Part shown: positions 3,096 to 57,560 of the stretch, in pieces | Numbering within the stretch: position 1 is the stretch's first letter | How the letters are laid out: each line of letters begins with the position of its first letter | Origin: a virus | Taxonomy: Duplodnaviria > Heunggongvirae > Uroviricota > Caudoviricetes | IMG/VR virus record: IMGVR_UViG_2681813318_000003 | Strand: one strand, 5' to 3' | Length of the DNA stretch: 64,000 nt | Notes under the pieces: model-generated | What the model saw: only the letters and a program-made list of their open reading frames with translations | What the model was told of the DNA's origin: nothing | Database searches by the model: none | Made by a program: the position numbers and the translations under genes

Positions 3096-3529
3096 TACTC
3101 ACCACCTTGTGCTTTCAGGATGCCGTCAATCATTTCGACAATTCCTTTCGCTTTGACACCAACCTGATTACCAATAACTCGTAGACCGGCAATACCTTCG
3201 TTGTCTGCAATTGACTCCAGCTCTTCTCGTGTGAAAGTCTGGATCTGTTTGGCCGGTTCATCTGGTGTCCCACGTTTCATTGGCACAATGTCAGGCGCTG
3301 CTGGCTCGGTAATCAGGTCTGCTGTCAATTCACCACGATCACTGTATGCGGCAGACGGAGAAACATTTTTGCCCTCTACTGTTGACGCTCGCATTGAAGC
3401 ACAAATCCTCTGCTGATCGATAAAAGGCAACTCCGCTACGGATACCCCGTTCTCGAACTGAACGCCACACAGCATTCCCGAATAACCGGAAAATTGCGGT
3501 TCTAATAAAACAATTTTTGCTGGTTTCAT
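3095..3529 (-). CDS. Hypothetical virion protein
   Basis: 144-aa ORF, ATG at 3529 with GAGAGAAAG upstream; position between decoration and head-tail genes. Confidence 0.3.
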   Translation of the reverse strand: MKPAKIVLLEPQFSGYSGMLCGVQFENGVSVAELPFIDQQRICASMRASTVEGKNVSPSAAYSDRGELTADLITEPAAPDIVPMKRGTPDEPAKQIQTFTREELESIADNEGIAGLRVIGNQVGVKAKGIVEMIDGILKAQGGE

Positions 3530-3573: not shown

Positions 3574-4494
3574 TTATTCCTGTGCAGCAGTGACTTCTAC
3601 GGTCGCTGTCGCTTTGTGGCTACCATCTTGGGTAGTAACCTCGATTGTGGCAGTACCAGCCGCAACGCCAGTTACAACACCGGTTTCGCTATCAACCGTT
3701 GCAAACTCGGTATTTTTGGATTCCCAAGTAACGGTTTTATTTGTTGCTCCTGCCGGCTCGACATTTGCGGTCAGCTGAACAGTTTTGTTTGCCTCAACGG
3801 TTGTGCTATTTGGGTCGATTTCGACGCCGGTAACAGCCACAACAGGCGCAGTTACTTCCACCGTTGCAGTTGCCTTTTTGCTGCCATCTTGGGAAACGAT
3901 CTCAATCGTCGCAGTGCCAACTTCTACACCAGTAACGTTCCCGCTCTGGTCTACCGTTGCCTTATCTTCATTTTTTGAAGACCAGGTAACAGCCTTATTC
4001 GTCGCATTTGACGGCTGAACATTCGCTTTCAGACTGACTGATTTCCCTTTCTCAACAGAGGTTGAGTCTGGCGTTACCGTTACGGATTGAACGGCTACCG
4101 GATTTACGGTGACTTCCACTGACGCGGAAAGCTGGGTTTCCTGATCAGTTGCAGTAATTTTTACTTTGCCTGGTGCTACACCAGTTACTAATCCAGTGCC
4201 GTTAACGGCTGCAATTTGATCATTAGCTGACTTCCAAGTGAATGAACTGGCACTCTTACCCATACTAATACCTGCACTAAGTTGAACAGTTTTCCCAACC
4301 AAAACTGACGGTGAAGCCGGGGTTATGTTTACGGATTGGGAGAGGGGAACCGCCTGCAAACAAGCAGATAGCTGACTTTGTTGCCGCTCGGTTAAAGGTT
4401 CATCGGAGATAGAATTGGTAAATCCGGCGCGGCACATATGCCCCGTAAAATCCGAAAATGCCTCTTCCGTAATCTTCATCTTTTGTTCTGGCAT
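3574..4494 (-). CDS. Ig-like domain (three Big_2-type repeats) head decoration protein
   Basis: Three tandem about 80-aa repeats of the type VTVTP..SV..G..V.L.A.V.P..A.NK.VTW.S...ATV; ATG 4494 preceded by AGGAG; directly downstream of the capsid gene. Confidence 0.55.
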   Translation of the reverse strand: MPEQKMKITEEAFSDFTGHMCRAGFTNSISDEPLTERQQSQLSACLQAVPLSQSVNITPASPSVLVGKTVQLSAGISMGKSASSFTWKSANDQIAAVNGTGLVTGVAPGKVKITATDQETQLSASVEVTVNPVAVQSVTVTPDSTSVEKGKSVSLKANVQPSNATNKAVTWSSKNEDKATVDQSGNVTGVEVGTATIEIVSQDGSKKATATVEVTAPVVAVTGVEIDPNSTTVEANKTVQLTANVEPAGATNKTVTWESKNTEFATVDSETGVVTGVAAGTATIEVTTQDGSHKATATVEVTAAQE

Positions 4495-10338: not shown

Positions 10339-11229
10339 TTATGCCGGTAAAGCAATTTCTAACGGTTTATCCAAAGGTTGTTTGTCGAATGCCAGCAGTG
10401 GCAGCGTGTCAGGCAGTCGACGGCCAAAGTCAGGGTTTCGGTACACACCATACAACGGAGACGTAAAGCTCAGGTTGTGAATGTCCTTGAGCAGCTTCAC
10501 AATGCTGGCCTCGTCCACCAGACTGTCGGCAATGTCCTGAATCGTCGTGCCACGATTCCGCCCAGCTTTTGCCAGGGAACTGTTCTTGTGGTAGTCCGCC
10601 ACCAGATCACGCAGTGCACGGCGACGACGAGACTCGCTCATTGCGAACAACTCTTTGACGATCGCCTCGTTATCACCCGGGTCGGAACGGAAATGGCGCT
10701 GGAATACACGCAGTGCACTTTCATAGCTCTTCGGTCGCTCAGGGCGGATGAACTTAAACCCTGCTTTCATGGCGAAGGGATTGTATTTGCTCATCGAGGA
10801 CTGGATCTCAATGATTGGCCGGTCATGCATCCTGCTAACCAGGTTAATCATTCGATAAGAGACGCCTACGCCACGATACTGAGTATCCACAACTGAGCGA
10901 CTGATCACCGCAAAGTTGTTATTCACGTACCGACCCCAGTACTGGTTAGCCACGGTGGTATTAGTGGTTGGTTTCAACTTAGGAAACATGCGGTGGCGAG
11001 GTGCCAGCAGTAGTTTCGGGTAAGCCATAACCACGACGCCCACCAGACGGTCATCAAGTTCGCAGCGATAGTAAGTTGGCGCGAAAGGTTTGCCGTCTGT
11101 TTTGTAGTGAAGCGACTTAAGAGCGTGCCAGTCCTCTACAGTTCCCTTTGTGACAGTCATTCGCTCCAGAAAGTCCAGATGACGCGGAAACTCTTCAGGG
11201 CGGTAGCGTTTAATGATGATGTCCGTCAT
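10339..11229 (-). CDS. GNAT-like acetyltransferase-fold protein (tentative)
   Basis: Contains Q-Y-R-G-V-G-V-S resembling GNAT motif A (R/Q-x-x-G-x-G/A); translationally coupled to the upstream ABC ATPase gene. Confidence 0.35.
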   Translation of the reverse strand: MTDIIIKRYRPEEFPRHLDFLERMTVTKGTVEDWHALKSLHYKTDGKPFAPTYYRCELDDRLVGVVVMAYPKLLLAPRHRMFPKLKPTTNTTVANQYWGRYVNNNFAVISRSVVDTQYRGVGVSYRMINLVSRMHDRPIIEIQSSMSKYNPFAMKAGFKFIRPERPKSYESALRVFQRHFRSDPGDNEAIVKELFAMSESRRRRALRDLVADYHKNSSLAKAGRNRGTTIQDIADSLVDEASIVKLLKDIHNLSFTSPLYGVYRNPDFGRRLPDTLPLLAFDKQPLDKPLEIALPA

Positions 11230-11891
11230 AAATGAACCTCATCATGACTACCATTGTGATATTCCACCTTCACGCGTTCTTTGTAGTGCTTGGTGATCTG
11301 CATATCCGGGCGCAGCGCGTTCTTCAGGTCTTCGTGAGTCGTCGCCACCATTACCGTCGCACCAACCTTTCGAGCGGCACGCTGGAGGTTAGATGCCACA
11401 ACCTGAGCGGTTACACGGTCTAGAACAGCACCGAACTCGTCAGCAGCCCACACTTTAGCGCCTGACTCAATCAGTTTGGCAATCTTGAGACGATATTTCT
11501 GACCGTCTGACATTTCAGAAGGCTTGCGAACAAACAGATATGCATCGTTCAGACCAGCCATAGATAACAACCCAAGCGCATCGCTGGTCGTTTTGCCCAA
11601 CTGATCGATGACGTTAACCTCATTATCGAAGGTAAAATCATCGATGGAGGCTACAGACAGCCCTTCATCCTTCATCTGTCGTTGCAACTCGCGCAGCACA
11701 ACGGATTTGCCGGAACCGGATTGGCCGGTGATGTACACCACATCGCCCTGCTTCACTTCCAGCTCCAGATTGTCGTAAAGCGTCCACTCTTTTTCGTCCA
11801 GGCCAAGCCCGAACGACTCAGCGATTTCCAACGTGCGCGTGGTTTTATTTACGCGTGTCTGAAACGATACGTTGATGATGTATTTGCTCAT
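11226..11891 (-). CDS. Stand-alone ABC-type ATPase (no transmembrane partner)
   Basis: Walker A GQSGSGKS, ABC signature-like MSDGQKYRL, Walker B VWAADEF, H-loop ATTHEDL; 221 aa. Confidence 0.6.
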   Translation of the reverse strand: MSKYIINVSFQTRVNKTTRTLEIAESFGLGLDEKEWTLYDNLELEVKQGDVVYITGQSGSGKSVVLRELQRQMKDEGLSVASIDDFTFDNEVNVIDQLGKTTSDALGLLSMAGLNDAYLFVRKPSEMSDGQKYRLKIAKLIESGAKVWAADEFGAVLDRVTAQVVASNLQRAARKVGATVMVATTHEDLKNALRPDMQITKHYKERVKVEYHNGSHDEVHL

Positions 11892-12589
11892 ACAGCCATC
11901 TCCCCGGAAGAGATCTTCTCCGCATATGCCACAAATGCGTCTACCCCGCTTTCTCCCGTCATTTCTTCCATGTGGGCAAGCAAATCACCAACAACAATGG
12001 CAGAGCCAGCAGGAAGCGTTTTAAAGCCCAATACGTCGACAACACGTACTTCTTCCGCTGCAACTTCACGACTGATCTCGGTGTGTTCATCCTTCTGTCG
12101 TTTAGTTTCTTCGCCAAGATCGATAACTAGCGAGTCGGTGTCCATTTCTTCTGTCATGCTGCCAACGAGAACATTCAACTCACGCTCTTCAAAGCCGAAA
12201 ACCTCGATATCGTCCAGAACAAGCGACTCAAGCTCTTTCTGTAGCTTAATTGCATCGTAATCAATGCTGGCAAGTCGGTTATCTTCAAGGCGCTTCGCAC
12301 GAACCTCATCATCACTGAGATCATCGCGAACAATAACCGGTACGCGCTCAAGTCCAGCAAAAATTGCAGCCTCACGGCGGCCGTGGCCAGTAATAATTAC
12401 GTCGTTCTTATCGACCGTAATTGGCTGGTCAAATCCGCGCTTTTTAATGGCTGCGGCTAGATCTCGGATCTGCTGTTCATCATGCTTTTTGGCATTCATC
12501 TCATAGGGAATAAGATCTGCCGGGTCGCGATATACGATTTCAAACTTTTTGGTCATTACATACGCTCCTTGTAGTAGTCGACCAGCCAC
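11888..12589 (-). CDS. ParB-like nuclease domain protein
   Basis: ParB/Srx-type motif ITGHGRREAA (GxxRxxA) near the N-terminus; acidic C-terminal half. Confidence 0.55.
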   Translation of the reverse strand: MAGRLLQGAYVMTKKFEIVYRDPADLIPYEMNAKKHDEQQIRDLAAAIKKRGFDQPITVDKNDVIITGHGRREAAIFAGLERVPVIVRDDLSDDEVRAKRLEDNRLASIDYDAIKLQKELESLVLDDIEVFGFEERELNVLVGSMTEEMDTDSLVIDLGEETKRQKDEHTEISREVAAEEVRVVDVLGFKTLPAGSAIVVGDLLAHMEEMTGESGVDAFVAYAEKISSGEMAV

Positions 12590-13236
12590 ACCAGAGCCTC
12601 ACCAGCGTTCTCCATTTCATTACCGGTGTTAATAGCCTGCTCTTTGATGATGTTTTTTATGGTTTCTGCAACACGATCTGACGCATCGAAAGTTACTTTG
12701 AAGCGCATGGTCTGATGTTCCGCCCCCACACGTTCGGTTTTCTCTCGTTTGTCGGTATCGACAGGCTCATCACTACCACGAGACAACGCCTCCAGTGCTT
12801 CAAGGTCGATTGCCGCCTCTTTTGCTAAAACCATCGAGATTTCGTCGTCATACGGGGCGATTTCAGACAGTTGATAGTCAAGTTCTGACTGAATTTCTTC
12901 AATGAAGCGTTGCAATGCGATTTGGTCGTCTTCACCGTATCGCTCGTTGTCCACCAGTGACATCTGTTTAGCTACGACATCGCTAATTTTGCCCACAGAA
13001 AGCACTGGAACCGTTGAAATTCCTTGCTCAATAGCGGCACGCCAGCGATGTTCGCCGCCGAGGATTTCAAAAAATCCATCTTCAAGTTCACGAGCCAAAA
13101 TTGGCTTAAAAAAGCCCAATTTTTCGATAGAACCTTTCAGTTTTTCAAAATTCTGCGCACCAACCGAATTGGTGTTCCAGGTATTCGGGCGAAGGTTGGC
13201 AACATCAACCTGCAAAATCGTGATTTTTACATCCAT
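12556..13236 (-). CDS. ParB-like nuclease domain protein (second copy)
   Basis: ParB motif ILGGEHRWRAA; start trimmed to ATG 13236 (MDVKITI); paralogous architecture to the adjacent gene. Confidence 0.55.
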   Translation of the reverse strand: MDVKITILQVDVANLRPNTWNTNSVGAQNFEKLKGSIEKLGFFKPILARELEDGFFEILGGEHRWRAAIEQGISTVPVLSVGKISDVVAKQMSLVDNERYGEDDQIALQRFIEEIQSELDYQLSEIAPYDDEISMVLAKEAAIDLEALEALSRGSDEPVDTDKREKTERVGAEHQTMRFKVTFDASDRVAETIKNIIKEQAINTGNEMENAGEALVWLVDYYKERM

Positions 13237-13318
13237 TTTATTGCTACAATCCACTAAGTAATCACTTACTTATTATAATAGCCAAATAACATACAAAAGG
13301 CACTAAGGAAAGAGGTTT

Positions 13319-26346: not shown

Positions 26347-27447
26347 ATGAGCGAGTCCAAATCGCCGGATGCCCTGAGAGCAATGGTAGCCGGTACGCTG
26401 GCTAATTTTCAGCACCCAACCCTGAAACACAACCTGACTACGCTTAAAGCGTTACACCATGTTGCGTTGATGGATGACACACTGCATGTCGAACTAATCA
26501 TGCCTTTCGTGTGGAATAAGCCTTTTGAAGACCTGAAAGAGCAATGTAGTGGTGATCTGCTCCGTATCACTGGCGCAAAGGCTATTGACTGGAAGCTGTC
26601 GTACAACATTGCCACGCTTAAGCGCGTCAAAAACCAACCAGGCATTAATGGCGTTAAGAACATTATCGCCGTCAGCTCAGGCAAGGGCGGCGTGGGTAAA
26701 TCCTCCACGGCGGTAAACCTGGCACTGGCGTTGGCTGCTGAAGGTGCGAAAGTTGGTATTTTGGATGCCGATATCTATGGTCCATCAATTCCAACCATGC
26801 TGGGCGCGGAAAACCAACGTCCAACCTCACCTGACGGTACTCACATGGCACCTATCATGTCTCATGGCCTGGCAACCAACTCTATTGGTTATCTGGTCAC
26901 CGACGACAATGCAATGGTGTGGCGTGGACCGATGGCCAGCAAGGCGCTGATGCAGATGTTGCAGGAAACTCTATGGCCTGATCTGGACTATCTCGTTCTC
27001 GATATGCCGCCGGGCACTGGTGATATTCAGTTGACGCTGGCGCAGAACATTCCTGTAACTGGTGCGGTTGTGGTAACTACGCCGCAAGACATCGCGCTGA
27101 TCGATGCGAAGAAAGGCATTGTGATGTTCGAAAAAGTCGAAGTGCCGGTACTGGGTATCGTCGAAAACATGAGTGTGCATATTTGCAGTAACTGCGGTCA
27201 TCACGAGCCAATTTTTGGCACCGGTGGCGCACAGAAACTGGCCGAGAAATACAACACGCAGTTGTTAGGCCAAATGCCACTTCATATCTCTCTTCGTGAA
27301 GATCTGGATAACGGAACACCAACCGTTATTAGTCGTCCAGATAGCGAATTTACGGCTATTTATCGTGACCTCGCAGATCGCGTTGCTGCCCAAATGTATT
27401 GGCAAGGTGAAGTAATACCTGGCGAAATCGCATTCCGCGCAGTGTGA
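26347..27447 (+). CDS. apbC: Fe-S cluster carrier ATPase Mrp/ApbC (host-type)
   Basis: 366 aa, P-loop SGKGGVGKS, CxxC motif ICSNCGHHEP; divergent from metG with a 157-bp intergenic region as in the enterobacterial chromosome. Confidence 0.95.
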   Translation: MSESKSPDALRAMVAGTLANFQHPTLKHNLTTLKALHHVALMDDTLHVELIMPFVWNKPFEDLKEQCSGDLLRITGAKAIDWKLSYNIATLKRVKNQPGINGVKNIIAVSSGKGGVGKSSTAVNLALALAAEGAKVGILDADIYGPSIPTMLGAENQRPTSPDGTHMAPIMSHGLATNSIGYLVTDDNAMVWRGPMASKALMQMLQETLWPDLDYLVLDMPPGTGDIQLTLAQNIPVTGAVVVTTPQDIALIDAKKGIVMFEKVEVPVLGIVENMSVHICSNCGHHEPIFGTGGAQKLAEKYNTQLLGQMPLHISLREDLDNGTPTVISRPDSEFTAIYRDLADRVAAQMYWQGEVIPGEIAFRAV

Positions 27448-27484: not shown

Positions 27485-27874
27485 CTACATCACGGGACAA
27501 TCATCAAACTCGCCACTTCTTGCGTCGTTGATAATGTGAGTGATCACACCAAACACGGCATTGCTGCCCGTGCATCCATCGTCATCCTTTGGCAATGCTT
27601 CCTTCTTACCGGTTCTTAAATCCTCCAGATGCTGACGTGGGTACTTCCGGTATCTTTTTACGCGATATTCCCCACCCAGAGCGCATACAAGCAGAGAACC
27701 ATCAACCGGGGTAAGTGAGGAATCGACCACCAGCAATGCACCCTGTAATATTCCCTCACGATGATGACTATCAGCTGCCCTCATGAAGTAGGTCGCTGAA
27801 GGATGTCTAATTATCTGCTGATCAAGAGAAATACGGCTCTCAGCATAATCCGCCGCAGGAGAAGGGAAGCCCAT
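27485..27874 (-). CDS. UmuD'-like peptidase S24 protein encoded in pre-processed form (HumD-like)
   Basis: Starts MGFPSPAADY, corresponding to UmuD residues just after the Cys24-Gly25 autocleavage site; HPSATYF motif; Ser (ADSH) and Lys (RVKRYRK) of the catalytic dyad present; in-frame TAA five codons upstream excludes a longer N-terminus. Confidence 0.8.
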   Translation of the reverse strand: MGFPSPAADYAESRISLDQQIIRHPSATYFMRAADSHHREGILQGALLVVDSSLTPVDGSLLVCALGGEYRVKRYRKYPRQHLEDLRTGKKEALPKDDDGCTGSNAVFGVITHIINDARSGEFDDCPVM

Positions 27875-27890
27875 AATACTCGCCTCTTAA

Positions 27891-27910
27891 TACTGTATAT
27901 ACATACAGTA
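27891..27910. promoter_or_regulatory. LexA (SOS) box
   Basis: TACTGTATATACATACAGTA, a CTGT-N8-ACAG match to the SOS-box consensus, 17 nt upstream of the UmuD'-like ATG and overlapping a TTCAAA-17-TATACT promoter on the minus strand. Confidence 0.75.
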
Positions 27911-27964
27911 TATGTTGAAGCTATATATTTTTGAACTCTATCTCTTAAAAAAGATGTTAATAAG

Positions 27965-28207
27965 ATGCTAACTATTGAAAGGCATAAATATATACAATTC
28001 CATCAAACGTTATTTTTAACAAATTTTTTCTCTCCGTTGACTTTTGCGAAAGCCTTGTCTGGCCTAAATTGCGCGGAAGATACTTTTTCCTTCCTGAGTT
28101 ATCCACAGAGTTATGCACTTGCATGCATAACCTATACACACTATCTTAATTCGCAAGACACTGATGTTGCGGTATTGAAGGTTCATTGGGTTAAAAATAG
28201 ACATTAA
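27965..28207 (+). CDS. Hypothetical small hydrophobic protein (low confidence)
   Basis: 80-aa ORF divergent from the SOS-controlled gene, followed immediately by a terminator; weak SD. Confidence 0.25.
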   Translation: MLTIERHKYIQFHQTLFLTNFFSPLTFAKALSGLNCAEDTFSFLSYPQSYALACITYTHYLNSQDTDVAVLKVHWVKNRH

Positions 28208-28236
28208 AAAGCCCAGTTGACTAGGCTGGGCTTTTT
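28206..28236. terminator. Bidirectional rho-independent terminator
   Basis: AAAAAGCCCAGTTGACTAGGCTGGGCTTTTT. Confidence 0.6.
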
Positions 28237-28271
28237 AAAAGGAAACAGAGTTTGCGCCTCTGTTCCTGAGC

Positions 28272-28572
28272 CATAAGTATCTGGCGACTGAGCTAAGATT
28301 AACCGAATGTACTGGATTCATCAAGAAACGTTGAGCCGTCATGCTAGGTAATAATGACCATTTACCAAACATCGTTGTTCTCAAAGAAGATTTAAGTCCA
28401 GGTTTTTGGTGACTCTAAAACCTTACCTTAACTCGAAATCGTGCCGTAAGTATCTGGCGACTACAGATATTGCAACTGCAAAGGCAAGCTCAAAGGTATT
28501 TGCAGCTAGGTGCGATAAAACTAAGTGAGGCCTATAGTGCTTAACTTACTTTTCAAAATCGTGCCGCCTATG
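28272..28572. repeat. Two tandem imperfect repeat units in a non-coding region
   Basis: Both units begin with TAAGTATCTGGCGACT (28276 and 28449) and end with AAATCGTGCCG (28437 and 28555); no ORF. Confidence 0.45.
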
Positions 28573-28630
28573 TTCGCAATCATCGAAGCGATCATTGAGT
28601 ACGTCAACCAGCGCCCATAATGCTAGTTGT

Positions 28631-28660
28631 TACCGGCCCCATCCAAATGGGGCCATTTTA
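28631..28660 (+). terminator. Rho-independent terminator
   Basis: CCGGCCCCATCCAAATGGGGCC followed by ATTTTATT. Confidence 0.55.
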
Positions 28661-28669
28661 TTGTATTGA

Positions 28670-29341
28670 CTACATACTTTCTGATCTAATTGAGTTGTTC
28701 ACTGCTCTGGCAATTTTCTCCCGCAATTGCTGCGTTCCGTGGTACTGAACCGCAATATCCCGCAACTCGTTCACCAGTTCTCTAATCTGGTGATCTTTAA
28801 GCTCATTATTTGGGTGATGGGTAACAACTCTGGTTAATTCACCCTTGTCTTTTGCCCTTACGTATGCAGCTCTTGTGCATTCGACCCATGTATTACCGCC
28901 TACATTAACTTCGTAGATTAGGCTAGACTTATCTGTCAATTCGGAACAAATACGGGCCGTGGTCTGGCAACTAGAGCATTCGCAGTTATCGCGGAAACCG
29001 TGGTCTACTGGCTTCGGTTTCACATCATCAACTTTTTCTACCCTATTGGAATTTAAATACTTCGAAGCCTTGCTATGCCAATCGCTGGTTTTAGGATCTT
29101 GTCCATCCATCAAACGCCAGGCTTCAGCGATTAACTCATAACTAGTGACTGTAGCTTCCTGCGCATCACCAATAAGTCGTGTAATCTCTCTTTCAAGCCG
29201 ACCGCCTAGCTCTGTTTTAGTGCAATGTTCTGACCAATCGCCAGCCTCAAGCAGCGCGAGAATGCTTAAAATATCGTCCAATAGATCAGTGGTATTATCG
29301 ACTTCCTTCTGAAGCTCACCGGCTACTGATTTATGCATCAT
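28670..29341 (-). CDS. Hypothetical protein
   Basis: 223-aa ORF, first of a run of small minus-strand accessory genes. Confidence 0.4.
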   Translation of the reverse strand: MMHKSVAGELQKEVDNTTDLLDDILSILALLEAGDWSEHCTKTELGGRLEREITRLIGDAQEATVTSYELIAEAWRLMDGQDPKTSDWHSKASKYLNSNRVEKVDDVKPKPVDHGFRDNCECSSCQTTARICSELTDKSSLIYEVNVGGNTWVECTRAAYVRAKDKGELTRVVTHHPNNELKDHQIRELVNELRDIAVQYHGTQQLREKIARAVNNSIRSESM

Positions 29342-38732: not shown

Positions 38733-39326
38733 CTAAGCAGCCTTCTTTGATGGTCTTTTTTTCCTGATCACATTCGCAGGATCATACCCTCCCAGACTTT
38801 TCATGACGTCCAAAGGGATCTTGCTTATAGAGTGCCCAGCGTCCTGACAGAATCCTCGAAAAACAACGAGCATACTGCCACCGGGGTTGATGTTTACTTC
38901 TACCTGACCCAAATTGACGTCAGGCTCGACAAACGCTACGCGGCCACCAGACAGAATAATCGTCTCATTCGCACACTCTGTTGCACGCTCATACCACTTT
39001 GTATCGAGGGATTGAGGAATTAGCATCACTGTTGTAACTCCGCGAGCCTGCTCACGTATAGCCGCATCAATCCAGGGGGAGATTTTGGAGTAGGGTGGAT
39101 TGAGGAAGGCAATTGTACCTGGCTGTCCCCATTCAGATTTCAAAGCATCACGCTCAACGCCTATGAAAATAGGCAGCTTTGCGTTGTCCTTGTTGCAGGC
39201 AACGTCAACATCAAATGTCACTCCAAGATAACGTTGAATGGCAGAAAACAGCCAATCAGGTGTTCTCCAGAGGTCACGAAGAGAGTTGTCGCGCTTTCGC
39301 TGTTTGATTTTTTCGGCTGCAATCAT
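38733..39326 (-). CDS. Phage-type Dam-like DNA N6-adenine methyltransferase, orphan
   Basis: 197 aa with FLNPPYSK catalytic motif; size and layout of the small phage Dam family. Confidence 0.6.
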   Translation of the reverse strand: MIAAEKIKQRKRDNSLRDLWRTPDWLFSAIQRYLGVTFDVDVACNKDNAKLPIFIGVERDALKSEWGQPGTIAFLNPPYSKISPWIDAAIREQARGVTTVMLIPQSLDTKWYERATECANETIILSGGRVAFVEPDVNLGQVEVNINPGGSMLVVFRGFCQDAGHSISKIPLDVMKSLGGYDPANVIRKKRPSKKAA

Positions 39327-54187: not shown

Positions 54188-54841
54188 TTAAATCGTGTCG
54201 GAGGGCTTTTTACGCGCGTTACGCGCTGCGTTTATGCTTATGACGCCAGCTTTTGGACGTGGGTCAACAAGGTTAAGCTCTTCTTCACTGTGGTATTCGA
54301 GGTCGAACTCACGTTTTACATGTCTGATGTAGATTGCGGTGAGCAGGCTATCTTTGGTTAGGAAGTGTCCGTAGGATTTGCGGATCACTTCTTCTACCTT
54401 CTCGATTTTCTCACCCCCCATACAGAGATGATTAAACCGGCTGTGTTTTCGCAACATTTCGTCTACTGGACCTGAGTAAACCTTGTCTACTTTCCCAAAA
54501 CGGATGATTTTCCCTGTGTCTGCGGATACAAGGCAAATCAGCTTGTCTGGTGATAAACGATCTCGCCACGTCACACCTGAACGGAGTGTGTTGAAGTAGG
54601 GGGCATCCAATCCGATGATCGGTTTACGAAATGCGAGCAATGGAACGTACCTGATGCAACTGTTTAAATGAAAATTCACACCAGCCTTATCAAGTTTAAT
54701 TCTGGTTTCGTAGATCGGGCACTTCGCCGCTATACCGCAGATGTCACAAAGCAACTTCTGCTTATTCAGGTTGGAATTTGATTCGATAGTGTAGGAGCCG
54801 TCTTCAAGACGACGAACCCAGCGCGTGCGTTTTAGATCCAT
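54188..54841 (-). CDS. Hypothetical protein adjacent to the replication origin
   Basis: 217-aa ORF with CxxC (LCDICG) and further Cys residues; divergent from repA. Confidence 0.4.
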   Translation of the reverse strand: MDLKRTRWVRRLEDGSYTIESNSNLNKQKLLCDICGIAAKCPIYETRIKLDKAGVNFHLNSCIRYVPLLAFRKPIIGLDAPYFNTLRSGVTWRDRLSPDKLICLVSADTGKIIRFGKVDKVYSGPVDEMLRKHSRFNHLCMGGEKIEKVEEVIRKSYGHFLTKDSLLTAIYIRHVKREFDLEYHSEEELNLVDPRPKAGVISINAARNARKKPSDTI

Positions 54842-54918
54842 ATGTCATTTTTCTGTGATTGTTAGCCGAGGCAACGATAACCCACCAGGTGCGCCGAAGG
54901 TAGTAAATGCCTGTTTTA

Positions 54919-55145
54919 ATTATTCACATATCCACAGGATAGATCCTAATAAAGAGATCCATAGATAGATCCTTGTATAGATCAAATAAGATCCCCGATC
55001 GCTGTAAGCCGCGCCACGACTGGTCTGAAGCCATGTTCATGTATGCTACCAGCGGTAATTGATAGTCTGTCAACGGTTCGCCGTATGCTGCCAACTGTTT
55101 TTGGTATGCTGCCAGCGGCAAATCAAGTATGCTGTCAGCGGTTGA
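54919..55145. promoter_or_regulatory. Plasmid-type replication origin: tandem DnaA boxes, GATC-rich repeats, upstream iterons
   Basis: TTATTCACATATCCACA (two overlapping DnaA-box matches), six GATC sites within about 60 bp in AGATCC units, then four iteron copies GTATGCT(G/A)(C/T)CAGCGG at about 55041, 55083, 55104, 55127. Confidence 0.7.
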
Positions 55146-55162
55146 ATGACAAAGGTGTCCAC

Positions 55163-56257
55163 ATGTCCACAAAAAATAAAAAAGGTAAAAATAACAAAGA
55201 AGTAGAAGATAATCTCGACAACTTTGAAGAAGGTTCCCTTGAATTGTACACAGGGGAACTTGTCCCTAATAGCAACAATACAGTCCAACCAATTGCGTTG
55301 ATGCGGCTGGGGTTGTTCGTGCCCACGCTCAAGGGGACAAAATACAGCAAGCGTAACAAGCCAAATGAGATCGATGCTTCAAAGGAGCTTGTTCAGCTCG
55401 AAGTAGCCCGTTCTGAAGGTTATTCCGATATCAAGATAACCGGTCCTCGTCTCGACATGGATCATGATTTCAAAACGTGGGTGGGCGTTGTGCGTTCGCT
55501 GGCAGAATACGGCGAACCTAACGGTCGTGTCGAGTTAAGCATCACGAAATTTGCGAAGTTTTGTGGCTATCCATCGTCACAGATCCGCAAAACACTCCGC
55601 GACCGGCTTACAAACAGTCTTTTGAAGATCATGCGTACAACTCTGTCTTTTCAGAGAACGTATGAAGAAAAGAACGTCGACGGCTCTAACAAGATCTCGC
55701 TTCTGATGGTGCACCTCATCAATAGCGTGGACTACAACGAGCAGAAAGATACGGTGGTGTTCTATGCAGAACCGAAGCTGGCCGAACTATATCGCTTTGA
55801 CCATAAGGTTCTTTTGCAGTTAAAGGTTATCAATAAGCTACCACGCAAAGAAACAGCACAGGCTCTGTACACCTTCATCGAAAGTCTTCCAACCAAGCCT
55901 GCGCCGGTATCGCTTGCTCGATTACGTGCGCGACTCAATTTGAGTAGCAGGAATGTCAGCTCGCAGAATCAGACTATACGTAACGGCTTAAAAGCTCTCC
56001 AAGATTTGGGCTATCTCGAATACAGCGAGATTAAGCGAGGGCGGTCGATCTATATCCAGATTCACAGCCGCAATCCAAAACTCAAAGTCGCACCGCCAAA
56101 ACCTGAAGACATCGAACCCAAAAAACCAGATGAGAAAGCTGGGGAAATTGATGCCAAACAGAACATTATCAACAAGATAACCGAACTTTCGCAGAATTTG
56201 ACGCCTGAAAATATCAAGATGATTGAGATCCTTTCCAATAGTCTCAAACTGCTTTGA
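55163..56257 (+). CDS. repA: Iteron-binding replication initiator (RepA-like)
   Basis: 364-aa ORF flanked on both sides by same-orientation iterons; start taken at ATG 55163 (MSTKNKKGK) after SD AAGG; architecture matches P1-type incC-repA-incA replicons. Confidence 0.7.
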   Translation: MSTKNKKGKNNKEVEDNLDNFEEGSLELYTGELVPNSNNTVQPIALMRLGLFVPTLKGTKYSKRNKPNEIDASKELVQLEVARSEGYSDIKITGPRLDMDHDFKTWVGVVRSLAEYGEPNGRVELSITKFAKFCGYPSSQIRKTLRDRLTNSLLKIMRTTLSFQRTYEEKNVDGSNKISLLMVHLINSVDYNEQKDTVVFYAEPKLAELYRFDHKVLLQLKVINKLPRKETAQALYTFIESLPTKPAPVSLARLRARLNLSSRNVSSQNQTIRNGLKALQDLGYLEYSEIKRGRSIYIQIHSRNPKLKVAPPKPEDIEPKKPDEKAGEIDAKQNIINKITELSQNLTPENIKMIEILSNSLKLL

Positions 56258-56792
56258 TATGCTGTCAGCGGTGAAATGTATGCTATCAGCGGCTATTTTT
56301 CTGAAAAGTATGCTGTGAACGGTTAAAGATATGCTACCAGCGGTATAGTGAGATAAACGTATGCTGTGAGCGGTAAATCATCTATCACCACTCAATGCTC
56401 TGGCATACCTCCCCAGTGGTTACTAACCTCGAAGAGTGCATTCCATATAGGTTTGCGCTCACTAACATTCTATTGCCGTTGCGCTGATTGCTTGTAGTGA
56501 AAGGCATTTATTGCCTGCTGCTCCCTGATAGAACGTATGCTGTCAGCGGTGTTTTATTGAGGAATTTTTGTTTGGATATGCTATCAGCGGTAATTAATGG
56601 TATATGTCAGACCTTCGTATGCTGCCAGCGGTAATTTTGTTCTGGTTATAACCATACCGGTACACATTATTCATGCAATGTCTTAAGTATGCTGTCAGCG
56701 GTAAAAAATCGAGTAAAGTATGCTGTGAGCGGTGAGATAAACTCTCGATATGCTATCAGCGGTAATTGATTGTGTATGCTGTCAGCGGTGAC
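56258..56792 (+). repeat. Downstream iteron arrays (incA-like), about 12 copies
   Basis: 19-bp units (G)TATGCTGTCAGCGGT(A/G)A at about 56258, 56279, 56308, 56329, 56359, then after a 150-bp spacer at 56535, 56576, 56617, 56687, 56718, 56748, 56774; irregular spacing. Confidence 0.8.
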
Positions 56793-56836
56793 GACTATGA
56801 AATATGACTGCGGCACGTGCCGCAGTCAGTTTGCAT

Positions 56837-57049
56837 TTAGTGTATTTTCTTTAACAGACCCCAAAGTGTTCCGGCTTTTGTAGTCAGTTTTCCTGTTTCT
56901 GGATCGTACATACGCCATTCACGCCGCTGGTGGACGATATACCCATCTTCACGTTCCAGACGCTCAAGAATGCCAGGCTGCTTGAAACCCTTAGCACGCC
57001 AGTAGCCGCTTGTTTTCTCGATTTCCAGACCTGCCAGTGTTAATGCCAT
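56837..57049 (-). CDS. Hypothetical small protein
   Basis: 70-aa ORF, start overlapping the stop of the upstream gene. Confidence 0.35.
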   Translation of the reverse strand: MALTLAGLEIEKTSGYWRAKGFKQPGILERLEREDGYIVHQRREWRMYDPETGKLTTKAGTLWGLLKKIH

Positions 57050-57384
57050 TATCCAACCTCCTTGCAGTCATCGAAAAGGTAGCTTTGCTGAGAAGCGTGA
57101 ACGCCATAGAAGCCCTTGTATTTGTTGTATACGAAGTGGTCTTCTCCGACGCCGGTTAATTTGCCATTACGGTTTGTGAGATATGGGGATGACAATACTC
57201 GATCGTCACGCACTACATAGAACTGGTCGCCGCTGTCTACGACCATCGCGCCATATGGTGCTTTTATGACGTCGGTAAAAGCGCCATTCTTAATGTCGGC
57301 TACAGACATTTCACACTGATAAACAGTGGTGTCGGCCACAACGATCGAAGAAAGGAACAACAAAGCGAATGGGATGGCCTTCAT
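57049..57384 (-). CDS. Secreted or periplasmic protein
   Basis: 111 aa with signal peptide MKAIPFALLFLSSIVVA. Confidence 0.45.
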   Translation of the reverse strand: MKAIPFALLFLSSIVVADTTVYQCEMSVADIKNGAFTDVIKAPYGAMVVDSGDQFYVVRDDRVLSSPYLTNRNGKLTGVGEDHFVYNKYKGFYGVHASQQSYLFDDCKEVG

Positions 57385-57560
57385 GCTGCCACCTCTTTGA
57401 TTACATCAAATGCTGAATTAAATACGAGCACGATAGCCAAAGCGTTTATGACTACTTCGTTCACCGGGGAAAATACTTTACGAATGACACCAGTGAAAAT
57501 GCAGTCGATGACAAAAGCTATTGACACGATGAGTAACAAGTATTCAATAAAAATCTTCAT
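57381..57560 (-). CDS. Small membrane protein (below the ORF-track size cutoff)
   Basis: 59-aa ORF read manually (MKIFIEYLLLIVSIAFVIDCIFTGV...); its stop overlaps the next start as ATGA; two hydrophobic segments. Confidence 0.3.
   Translation of the reverse strand: MKIFIEYLLLIVSIAFVIDCIFTGVIRKVFSPVNEVVINALAIVLVFNSAFDVIKEVAA

Follow-up and report, generated by a model that had tools for sequence, protein, structure and literature searches.

A probable iteron-controlled replicon of the P1/RepFIB family in an SSU5-type phage-plasmid

The locus made up of repA, a putative origin and putative control iterons, at positions 54920-56792 of the 64,000-nt stretch of viral DNA analysed here (the window), is very probably the theta-type, iteron-controlled plasmid replicon of an SSU5-family phage-plasmid of the pECOH89/p09EL50 type, maintained as a low-copy extrachromosomal prophage. 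In its sequence, the replicon follows the plan of the classic phage P1 oriR and of the RepFIB origins of the F plasmid. The anatomy of the locus, the homology of its protein and of its origin DNA, the pattern of conservation and the exclusively plasmid location are all directly observed. The replicon is not new: it is already present in the plasmid-typing databases, as IncFIB(H89-PhagePlasmid) and as rep_cluster_488 of MOB-suite, and the family of its host element is well described.

The left edge of the origin is formed by two tandem DnaA boxes (54920-54936, + strand), as had been recognized in the sequence-only reading. The first box, TTATTCACA at 54920-54928, is perfect and the second, ATATCCACA at 54928-54936, has one mismatch; both lie on the same strand, have one base in common and correspond in position, by homology, to the DnaA-binding site annotated in P1 oriR. 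Single DnaA boxes occur in the window at chance frequency (64 observed vs 62 expected), so that only the tandem arrangement and the position are informative. This tandem is kept in the Klebsiella, Cronobacter, SSU5, pMT1, JK004 and F RepFIB origins.

Next to the boxes, heptamer-like units contain six GATC (Dam) sites (54942-55000), at positions 54942, 54956, 54968, 54980, 54990, and 54997, a cluster that aligns with the five Dam sites annotated in P1 oriR. Nowhere else in the 64 kb are GATC sites so dense: 60 bp hold 6 here and 3 in the runner-up, and the Poisson expectation for a 60-bp segment with at least six, taken over the whole window, is about 0.02. All six had been read as AGATCC units; the number stands, but only four are AGATCC, one being AGATCA and one CGATCG. 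The cluster sits in an A+T-rich segment (30% G+C at 54900-54992), and a G+C-rich stretch (54992-55036, 62% G+C), whose GCCGCGCCACG-CTGG is common to P1 and to the Klebsiella and Cronobacter relatives, separates the GATC repeats from the iterons. The succession of tandem DnaA boxes, GATC heptamer repeats and G+C-rich stretch is the one characteristic of the family. The core can be aligned at the nucleotide level with P1 oriR, including AGATCCCCGATCG and GCCGCGCCACG-CTGG, as well as with JK004, SSU5, pMT1 and relatives, and the same core sequence, with DnaA boxes and GATC heptamers, is seen 5' of the F RepFIB repA.

Iterons were searched for in the whole window with the pattern TATGCTGTCAGCGGT, allowing up to 3 mismatches. 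We obtained 19 matches vs 1.45 expected, a number reached in 0 of 100 shuffles, and 17 of the 19 fall in the replicon locus, all on the + strand. The incC-like origin set, 5' of repA (55042-55146, + strand; consensus GTATGCTGTCAGCGGTAA), comprises five iterons and not four, as had first been counted; they start at 55042, 55063, 55084, 55105, and 55128, with a spacing of 21-21-21-23 bp, vs 21-21-21-22 in P1 incC. Of these, iterons 2 and 3 are degenerate and carry 3 mismatches apiece. Five direct iterons of ~19 bp, phased at ~21 bp and placed between the core and repA, are again the arrangement characteristic of the family. The same five slots and spacing occur in all relatives examined, some slots being degenerate, and the iteron sequence is specific to each RepA clade while the slots and the phasing of about 21 bp are kept, as expected if initiator and sites co-evolve.

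The gene that follows the origin, repA (55163-56257, + strand), encodes a 364-aa initiator of the P1/RepFIB family; the gene itself had been recognized as repA in the sequence-only reading. The protein matches Pfam Rep3_N (WH1; E 3.9e-9, above the gathering score) and PHROG 775 (E 5e-133), and shows 46% identity to P1 RepA (E 4e-86; E 2e-64 in another search) and 52% identity to the RepFIB RepA of F over residues 30-339 (E 2e-110). An alignment of nine members of the RepA family has 75 invariant columns. RepA and the ORF upstream of it had no match in NCBIfam, and RepA had none among the sequences of PDB chains at E up to 1. Many assemblies are rotated so that the sequence begins exactly at the repA ATG. 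Just 5' of this codon, a Shine-Dalgarno sequence, AAGGTG, overlaps a weak DnaA-box-like GTGTCCACA with 2 mismatches (55152-55163, + strand). AAAGGT-TC-ACATG is kept in the Klebsiella and Cronobacter relatives, the DnaA-type box at the repA start has 1 mismatch in the Klebsiella relative, and P1 and JK004 have a DnaA-type box at -27/-28. In the P1/RepFIB family the repA promoter lies within the origin iterons, which allows autoregulation. A scan of the + strand for consensus sigma-70 promoters found none for repA; the sole candidate seen by eye, TTGATA-19 bp-TATGCT at 55059-55089, is not kept in the Klebsiella relative.

The promoter result, the two degenerate origin iterons of this copy and the many replication genes of the element itself, including those for Pol III alpha, primase and helicase, could suggest that the replicon has decayed or fallen silent and that the plasmid is maintained from another origin. 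We nevertheless regard this as very unlikely, given that the repA gene is intact, with 98-99% conservation in over 100 plasmids, and that the iteron slots and their phasing are kept out to the Klebsiella, Cronobacter, Salmonella, and Enterobacter relatives. Moreover, this is the sole replicon typed in p09EL50, in pEC881_2 and even in the reduced, IS-riddled 62-64-kb E. albertii derivatives.

Twelve further iterons, the number approximately estimated beforehand, occur 3' of repA at 56258-56789 and form a putative copy-control or incompatibility locus resembling incA. The proximal array contains five direct iterons (56258-56378, + strand; spacing 21-30-21-30) and begins one base past the repA stop codon, and the distal array contains seven (56536-56793, + strand; spacing 41-41-70-31-30-26), giving a bipartite layout in which all control iterons are direct. 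Their number ranges from 8 to 12 among relatives, PhiR41_1 being without the last three iterons of the distal array. Constant origin slots together with variable control iterons fit an essential origin combined with a tunable control locus.

Repeats in such a position could also be attachment or recombination sites, or a partition centromere, instead of RepA control sites: direct-repeat arrays are common among centromeres, and the record of the Klebsiella phage pJN2-26 labels two 20-bp repeats there attR and attL. These two labels, however, cover two of 13 iteron copies, and the 3' repeats share their sequence with the origin iterons beside the DnaA boxes. The same layout is found in P1, whose incA iterons were experimentally defined as RepA-binding, the par locus is about 30 kb off, and the replicon is never chromosomal in complete E. 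coli genomes, all of which makes the attachment-site or centromere reading highly improbable.

PhiR41_1, a phage isolate grown on MG1655, is collinear with the window at 89-99% identity, several short segments being without alignment. Plasmids of ~110 kb such as p09EL50, which is 98.4% identical to the window across the replicon, are collinear with it as well. The window contains virion genes (terminase, portal, scaffold, and major head protein, from PHROGs) and an S24 UmuD/HumD-like gene with a LexA box in front. The RepA of pECOH89 is reported to be identical to that of p09EL50 (PMC3999498), and this chain of identities indicates that the window carries the H89 subtype. pECOH89 and p09EL50 are grouped in the literature with SSU5 and pHCM2 (PMC3999498, PMC7969092), and the gene content and sequence of the window place it among the SSU5-supergroup phage-plasmids (SSU5_pHCM2 group, pECOH89/p09EL50 type). 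Assignment to the P1-like phage-plasmids (Punavirus) was rejected, as the backbone is SSU5-like and parAB is not directly 3' of the control iterons.

At the level of the family, the lysogen is extrachromosomal. The full locus is found in 118 PLSDB plasmids, the origin core is matched in 1,647 plasmids, and the replicon is present in 115 of 5,426 complete E. coli genomes, always on a plasmid and never on a chromosome (363 of 363 matches on plasmid records, 0 chromosomal). The phage-plasmid lifestyle proposed in the sequence-only reading is thereby upheld, through the collinearity with PhiR41_1, the virion and HumD-like genes and the plasmid location of every match. Both ends of the window lie inside the element, whose own topology is not visible in it, which would leave room for an integrated or co-integrated copy carrying the replicon as a passive passenger, but this is highly improbable since, several short segments apart, the 64 kb align broadly and in order to a circular phage-plasmid genome, nothing in them was recognized as a chromosomal flank and none of the 363 matches is chromosomal.

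The earlier statement that the window has no partition genes was essentially right. The parA gene of PhiR41_1, annotated as encoding a 222-aa ParA and succeeded by a 119-aa ORF, maps outside the window, with the par locus ~30 kb from the replicon. Two ORFs with a ParB_N domain and one Mrp/NUBPL ATPase do occur in the window and are probably not partition genes. Rfam gave no match, either for the locus with E up to 1 or for the whole 64-kb window at gathering scores, and no tRNA was found in a scan of the window. Some members of this phage-plasmid family carry CTX-M-15.

Four observations count against a functional iteron-controlled replicon, namely the lack of a consensus repA promoter, the two degenerate origin iterons, the all-direct control iterons and the distant par operon. 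If the locus does work in this way, its mechanism can be predicted from its homology to P1 oriR and RepFIB; for P1 we rely on the annotated record and on established knowledge. RepA monomers would bind the five phased origin iterons, host DnaA would occupy the tandem pair of boxes on the far side of the origin, and together they would open the intervening A+T-rich segment with its GATC heptamers. Initiation would need fully methylated GATC sites; after firing, the hemimethylated sites would be sequestered by SeqA, which would prevent immediate re-initiation. The twelve 3' iterons would not be an origin: they are expected to titrate RepA and to pair with the origin iterons (handcuffing), holding the copy number down, and RepA bound to the origin iterons would probably also repress its own promoter. 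The dependence on DnaA, Dam and SeqA, handcuffing, autoregulation and low copy number are all, in this sense, predictions from P1 and RepFIB, and as a member of the family the replicon would likewise be expected to depend on DnaK-DnaJ-GrpE.

One possible trans-acting partner of the GATC cluster, suggested by sequence, is the element's own Dam-family N6-adenine methyltransferase (38733-39326, - strand; Pfam PF05869 Dam, E 1.7e-37). A dam gene was also reported for pECOH89 (PMC3999498).

Between the two control arrays, an iteron-free spacer (56379-56535) holds a conserved block of ~55 bp at about 56408-56466 (CCCAGTGGTTACTAACC ... GTTTGCGCTCACTAAC). The block is kept in the Cronobacter, Salmonella, and Enterobacter relatives, with flanks diverged beyond alignment, and is absent from the Klebsiella relative. 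It has no Rfam match, and its motifs have no further copies in the 64-kb window. Its derivation from an SSU5-type iteron, as a relic, was rejected, since no match was found within 3 mismatches, as were operators repeated on the element, since there is no second copy in the window. It is conceivable, if rather unlikely, that the block is a regulatory site of its own, so far undescribed, within the copy-control locus. Such a site might be recognized by a factor of the host or the phage, or by RepA dimers, and might thereby tune handcuffing or couple plasmid copy number to whether the phage is lysogenic or lytic. Beyond the distal array, a perfect hairpin with a 10-bp stem, TGACTGCGGCACGTGCCGCAGTCA (56805-56828), terminator-like on both strands, separates the replicon from a convergent 70-aa ORF at 56837-57049.

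The practical value of this analysis lies in annotation. The anatomy of the origin is mostly missing from records, automatic pipelines over-extend RepA into the iterons, and at least one record wrongly presents iterons as att sites.

Compared to P1 (oriR/incC-repA-incA; IncY), the annotated order is the same, with two DnaA boxes, five AGATCC-type Dam sites, five incC iterons, repA and incA; P1 also has a G+C-rich stretch between Dam repeats and iterons, and its first incA iteron adjoins the end of repA. P1 encodes a UmuD/HumD-like protein and an adenine methylase, as does the element studied here, both being phage-plasmids. Nevertheless, there are several differences. The iteron is GTATGCTGTCAGCGGT here and ATGTGTGCTGGAGGGA in P1, the TGCTG core alone being in common, so that the earlier impression of a non-P1 iteron was correct. 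Six GATC sites replace five. Instead of 9 control iterons (3 forward and 6 reverse) there are 12, all direct and split into two arrays, which suggests that the geometry of pairing may differ. RepA is longer than its P1 counterpart, by about 30 residues at the N-terminus and 55 at the C-terminus. In P1, parAB lies directly 3' of incA, whereas here par is about 30 kb off, and the ParA and 119-aa ORF of PhiR41_1 are not a P1-type ParA/ParB pair. Finally, the virion is SSU5-like. The incC-repA-incA logic of P1 proposed at first holds for RepA homology, the order of parts and the alignable core, but the nearest characterized relative is RepFIB.

Indeed, the RepA of RepFIB of F/P307 (IncFIB), at 52% identity, is closer than that of P1 (46%), and its alignment reaches part of the C-terminal extension missing from P1 RepA. 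RepFIB of F differs in iteron sequence and in belonging to a conjugative plasmid, compared to a siphovirus-like phage-plasmid here. IncFIB(H89-PhagePlasmid) is a PlasmidFinder subtype of IncFIB, defined on pECOH89. Plasmids of this type and IncFIB(AP001918) plasmids coexist in the same strains (PMC12838234), which points to a functionally separate incompatibility type; this coexistence, together with the separate type rep_cluster_488 and the iteron that has little in common with that of P1, bears out the suggestion of a distinct incompatibility group. A 2026 preprint on RepA-linked copy-number heteroresistance concerns the unrelated p-p47 family.

The SSU5/pHCM2/pMT1/pLF82 (Cyrano) elements share the gene order metallophosphoesterase, 645-nt ORF, repA and 213-nt ORF, and SSU5-supergroup replicons share the origin core; the phage backbone of the supergroup is common to this element (PMC7969092). 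In contrast, RepA identity is only 48%, the value also given vs pLF82 (PMC3999498), the SSU5 iteron is AACCACTGTAGAGAGTA, and SSU5 and pMT1 have a duplicated origin core and iteron set as well as control iterons in both orientations. Within a backbone that is otherwise conserved, the specificity module, consisting of the iterons and repA, was exchanged or diverged. The supergroup keeps one origin core and swaps the module that sets specificity, which is likely the basis for the coexistence of compatible subtypes (H89, pHCM2/pLF82, and pKpn-like) in Enterobacteriaceae.

The locus at 54920-56793 is read here as the P1-type replicon of a phage-plasmid. Direct reading of 54500-57500 finds every feature listed in the sequence-only reading, with the DnaA boxes, GATC cluster, iterons and repA where it had placed them, and its interpretation stands with minor corrections. 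The first DnaA box (54920-54928, + strand), TTATTCACA, is a perfect match to TTATNCACA, and the second (54928-54936, + strand), ATATCCACA, has one mismatch and shares one base with the first. Single DnaA boxes occur in the window at chance level (64 observed, 61.9 expected), so what is informative is solely that the two boxes stand in tandem and where they lie. Six GATC sites follow at 54942-55000, four as AGATCC, one as AGATCA, and one as CGATCG. This is the highest GATC density within the 64 kb, the runner-up having three per 60 bp, and a Poisson model predicts only about 0.02 occurrences of at least six per 60 bp across the window. The segment with boxes and GATC sites has 30% G+C, against a window average of 46%, and is followed by a G+C-rich stretch (54992-55036, 62% G+C).

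We searched the whole window for the iteron pattern TATGCTGTCAGCGGT, allowing up to 3 mismatches, with 100 shuffles as control. There were 19 matches, compared to 1.45 expected, and no shuffle reached 19; 17 of the 19 fall within the locus, all on the + strand. Upstream of repA there are five origin iterons (55042-55142, + strand, spacing 21-21-21-23 bp) rather than the four counted previously, numbers 2 and 3 being degenerate. Downstream, a proximal control array of five iterons (56258-56374, + strand) starts one base past the repA stop, a distal array of seven pattern matches occupies 56536-56789 (+ strand), and a hairpin with a perfect 10-bp stem (56805-56828) ends the locus, facing a convergent gene.

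The repA gene (55163-56257, + strand) encodes 364 residues and is preceded by the Shine-Dalgarno sequence AAGGTG. RefSeq/PGAP annotates a protein of 404 residues from an ATG within iteron 1, which adds 55043-55162 to the gene. The shorter form, starting at ATG 55163, is supported by the Shine-Dalgarno and start-codon context, which is kept in the Klebsiella and Cronobacter relatives, by alignment with the P1 and RepFIB RepA proteins, and by the agreement of phage records. RepA passes the gathering score of Pfam Rep3_N (WH1) and matches PHROG 775 (5e-133), whereas NCBIfam and PDB sequence searches gave nothing additional. By tblastn against phage genomes, Escherichia phages PhiR41_1 and CMS-2020a encode RepA at 99.5-99.7% identity and Klebsiella SSU5-like phage-plasmids at 85-88%, with SSU5 and Cyrano at 48% and P1 and P7 at 43.5% (E 2e-64). 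In pairwise BLASTP, RepA is 46% identical to its P1 counterpart (E 4e-86) and 52% identical to RepFIB RepA of plasmid F (E 2e-110). An alignment of nine members has 75 invariant columns and a C-terminal extension that is common to the H89, SSU5, pMT1, and F-RepFIB proteins and missing from P1 RepA.

Both the replicon and the element that carries it are known already, and typing covers them as a matter of routine. In PLSDB, 118 plasmids have the 2.1-kb locus at 98-99.4% identity, the majority of those listed measuring about 100-115 kb and being non-mobilizable; the 118 include p09EL50 (E. coli O104:H4) and pEC881_2, with rep_cluster_488 as the only MOB-suite type. According to the pECOH89 announcement, pECOH89 and p09EL50 have the same RepA, with 48% identity to the pLF82 protein, and these plasmids were grouped with pHCM2 and SSU5 (PMC3999498), the latter giving its name to the supergroup defined by Pfeifer et al. 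(PMC7969092). In PlasmidFinder the replicon is named IncFIB(H89-PhagePlasmid), and the same strains harbour plasmids of this type and of IncFIB(AP001918) together (PMC12838234), which supports the separate incompatibility type suggested from the sequence.

Over its whole length the window is collinear, in reverse orientation, with 95448-107998 and 1-54629 of PhiR41_1, a phage propagated on MG1655, and encodes the terminase large subunit, portal, scaffold, major head, and Ig-domain structural proteins, as well as a PF05869 Dam-family methylase. A LexA-box-like palindrome (CTGTATATACATACAG, 27890-27912) immediately upstream of the S24 UmuD/HumD-like gene (27485-27874, minus strand) suggests that this gene may be under SOS control.

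An integrated state is improbable for this individual copy and is contradicted for the family: of 5,426 complete E. coli genomes, 210 show a match and 115 the full locus, and all 363 matching places are on plasmids, with none on a chromosome. A silent relic replicon is unlikely, given that repA is intact and conserved, that the iteron phasing is conserved, and that the locus is the sole typed replicon. The repeats flanking repA could also be taken for att sites, since the GenBank record of Klebsiella phage pJN2-26 labels two of them attR and attL (2378-2397 and 3648-3667), but these are 2 of 13 iteron copies, and the labels almost certainly arose as an artefact when prophage boundaries were predicted automatically from direct repeats.

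The phage-plasmid also has reduced, IS-interrupted derivatives of 62-64 kb, namely E. albertii p2014C-4015-1 (63.8 kb) and six more plasmids of about 62 kb, in which the replicon is 99.2% identical and the only one typed. Where a source is recorded, they come mostly from wild birds. The nucleotide-metabolism block beside the replicon is absent from the approximately 42 kb of the record that were covered.

The parA gene of PhiR41_1 (73152-73820) maps beyond the window, about 30 kb from repA. Inside it, two adjacent ParB_N-domain ORFs and an ABC-type ATPase (11226-13254, minus strand) are separated by a few kb from the terminase gene, and elsewhere an Mrp/NUBPL-type P-loop ATPase (26347-27447, + strand) matches the Pfam model called 'ParA'; they probably do not form the partition system, whose PhiR41_1 annotation falls outside the window. 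A noncoding A+T-rich region of about 800 bp (27875-28670), mostly unannotated apart from a hypothetical protein placed there in a few records, contains three DnaA-box-like motifs within 42 bp (28099-28140). Inspection by eye adds two terminator-like hairpins (about 28210-28236 and 28636-28660) as well as short direct repeats, with AAGTATCTGGCGACT occurring twice. The region lacks a counterpart in the PhiR41_1 alignment, is found in 83 plasmids of the same phage-plasmid family, and gave no Rfam or tRNA match.

By homology, RepA would bind the five phased iterons as a monomer and DnaA the two boxes, and together they would open the intervening A+T-rich segment with its GATC sites. Initiation would be licensed by full Dam methylation, and hemimethylation with SeqA would delay re-initiation. 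The downstream iterons would limit copy number through RepA titration and origin handcuffing, and RepA probably regulates its own synthesis. These steps are established for P1, from the annotated P1 record and the work of Abeles, Austin, Brendler, Chattoraj, and Wickner. This account is weakest at the repA promoter: a consensus scan found none on the + strand, and the sole candidate seen by eye, TTGATA-19 bp-TATGCT (55059-55089), is not kept in the Klebsiella relative.

Comparative support for this mechanism comes from the five origin slots and their spacing, which are constant in all relatives examined even if some slots are degenerate, while the number of control iterons varies. There are 12 in the window, p09EL50, pEC881_2, and Cronobacter pGK1025B, 11 in Salmonella AnCo3, 9 in PhiR41_1 and Enterobacter, and 8 in Klebsiella pJN2-26. 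PhiR41_1 (about 4061-4100, against 56688-56793 in the window) lacks the last three distal iterons, a polymorphism among close relatives. The iteron-free spacer between the arrays (56379-56535, 157 bp) contains a conserved block of about 55 bp (about 56408-56466) with YYACTAAC twice, 38 bp apart. The block is kept in the Cronobacter, Salmonella, and Enterobacter relatives, where its flanks have diverged beyond alignment, is absent from the Klebsiella lineage, and is confined to this replicon lineage; it has no Rfam match and no further copy in the window. Its two sub-blocks show a loose resemblance to the 3' halves of iterons, and the block may thus be two iterons that have decayed. A relic of the SSU5-type iteron was rejected, as the block has no match to it within 3 mismatches.

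The origin cores of nine replicons are homologous at the nucleotide level (MAFFT), sharing the DnaA boxes, GATC heptamers, AGATCCCCGATCG, and GCCGCGCCACG-CTGG, and F RepFIB has the same core as the window. As query in a distant blastn search, the 266-bp origin matched 1,647 plasmids, most by the core only (query 21-130, about 83%), including P1-like plasmids and Yersinia pestis pMT1. The 172-kb E. coli plasmid NZ_CP182375.1 (171.7 kb) has origin and repA in a version of 81% identity, and Acinetobacter venetianus plasmid CP060163.1 has a core match of 78% over 110 bp. SSU5 (1771-1990 and 2155-2375) and pMT1 (2600-2840 and 3110-3265) have the core and iteron set duplicated upstream of repA; the distal copy still has its DnaA boxes intact, with six GATC sites, whereas the proximal copy retains one box and decayed GATC sites in SSU5 and is visible only as a second iteron set in pMT1.

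In the annotated P1 record, an 18-bp DnaA site is followed by five Dam sites, then by five incC iterons within which PrepA is embedded, and then by repA; nine incA iterons start at the repA stop, and parA and parB come after them. In a feature scan, P1, SSU5, pJN2-26, and Cronobacter JK004 have the same layout as the window at nearly equal distances from the repA start, and the GATC units of P1 are likewise AGATCC. Unlike in P1, par does not adjoin the replicon, the control iterons are divided into two arrays, and all 12 are direct, compared to three forward and six reverse in P1. The iteron sequence is specific to each RepA clade, being GTATGCTGTCAGCGGT in the window and its Klebsiella and Cronobacter relatives, AACCACTGTAGAGAGTA in SSU5 and pMT1, ATGTGTGCTGGAGGGA in P1 and JK004, and TGTTGACTATACGCGA in the P1-like plasmid pMS6198C, and the five origin slots with their phasing of about 21 bp are retained across all four types.
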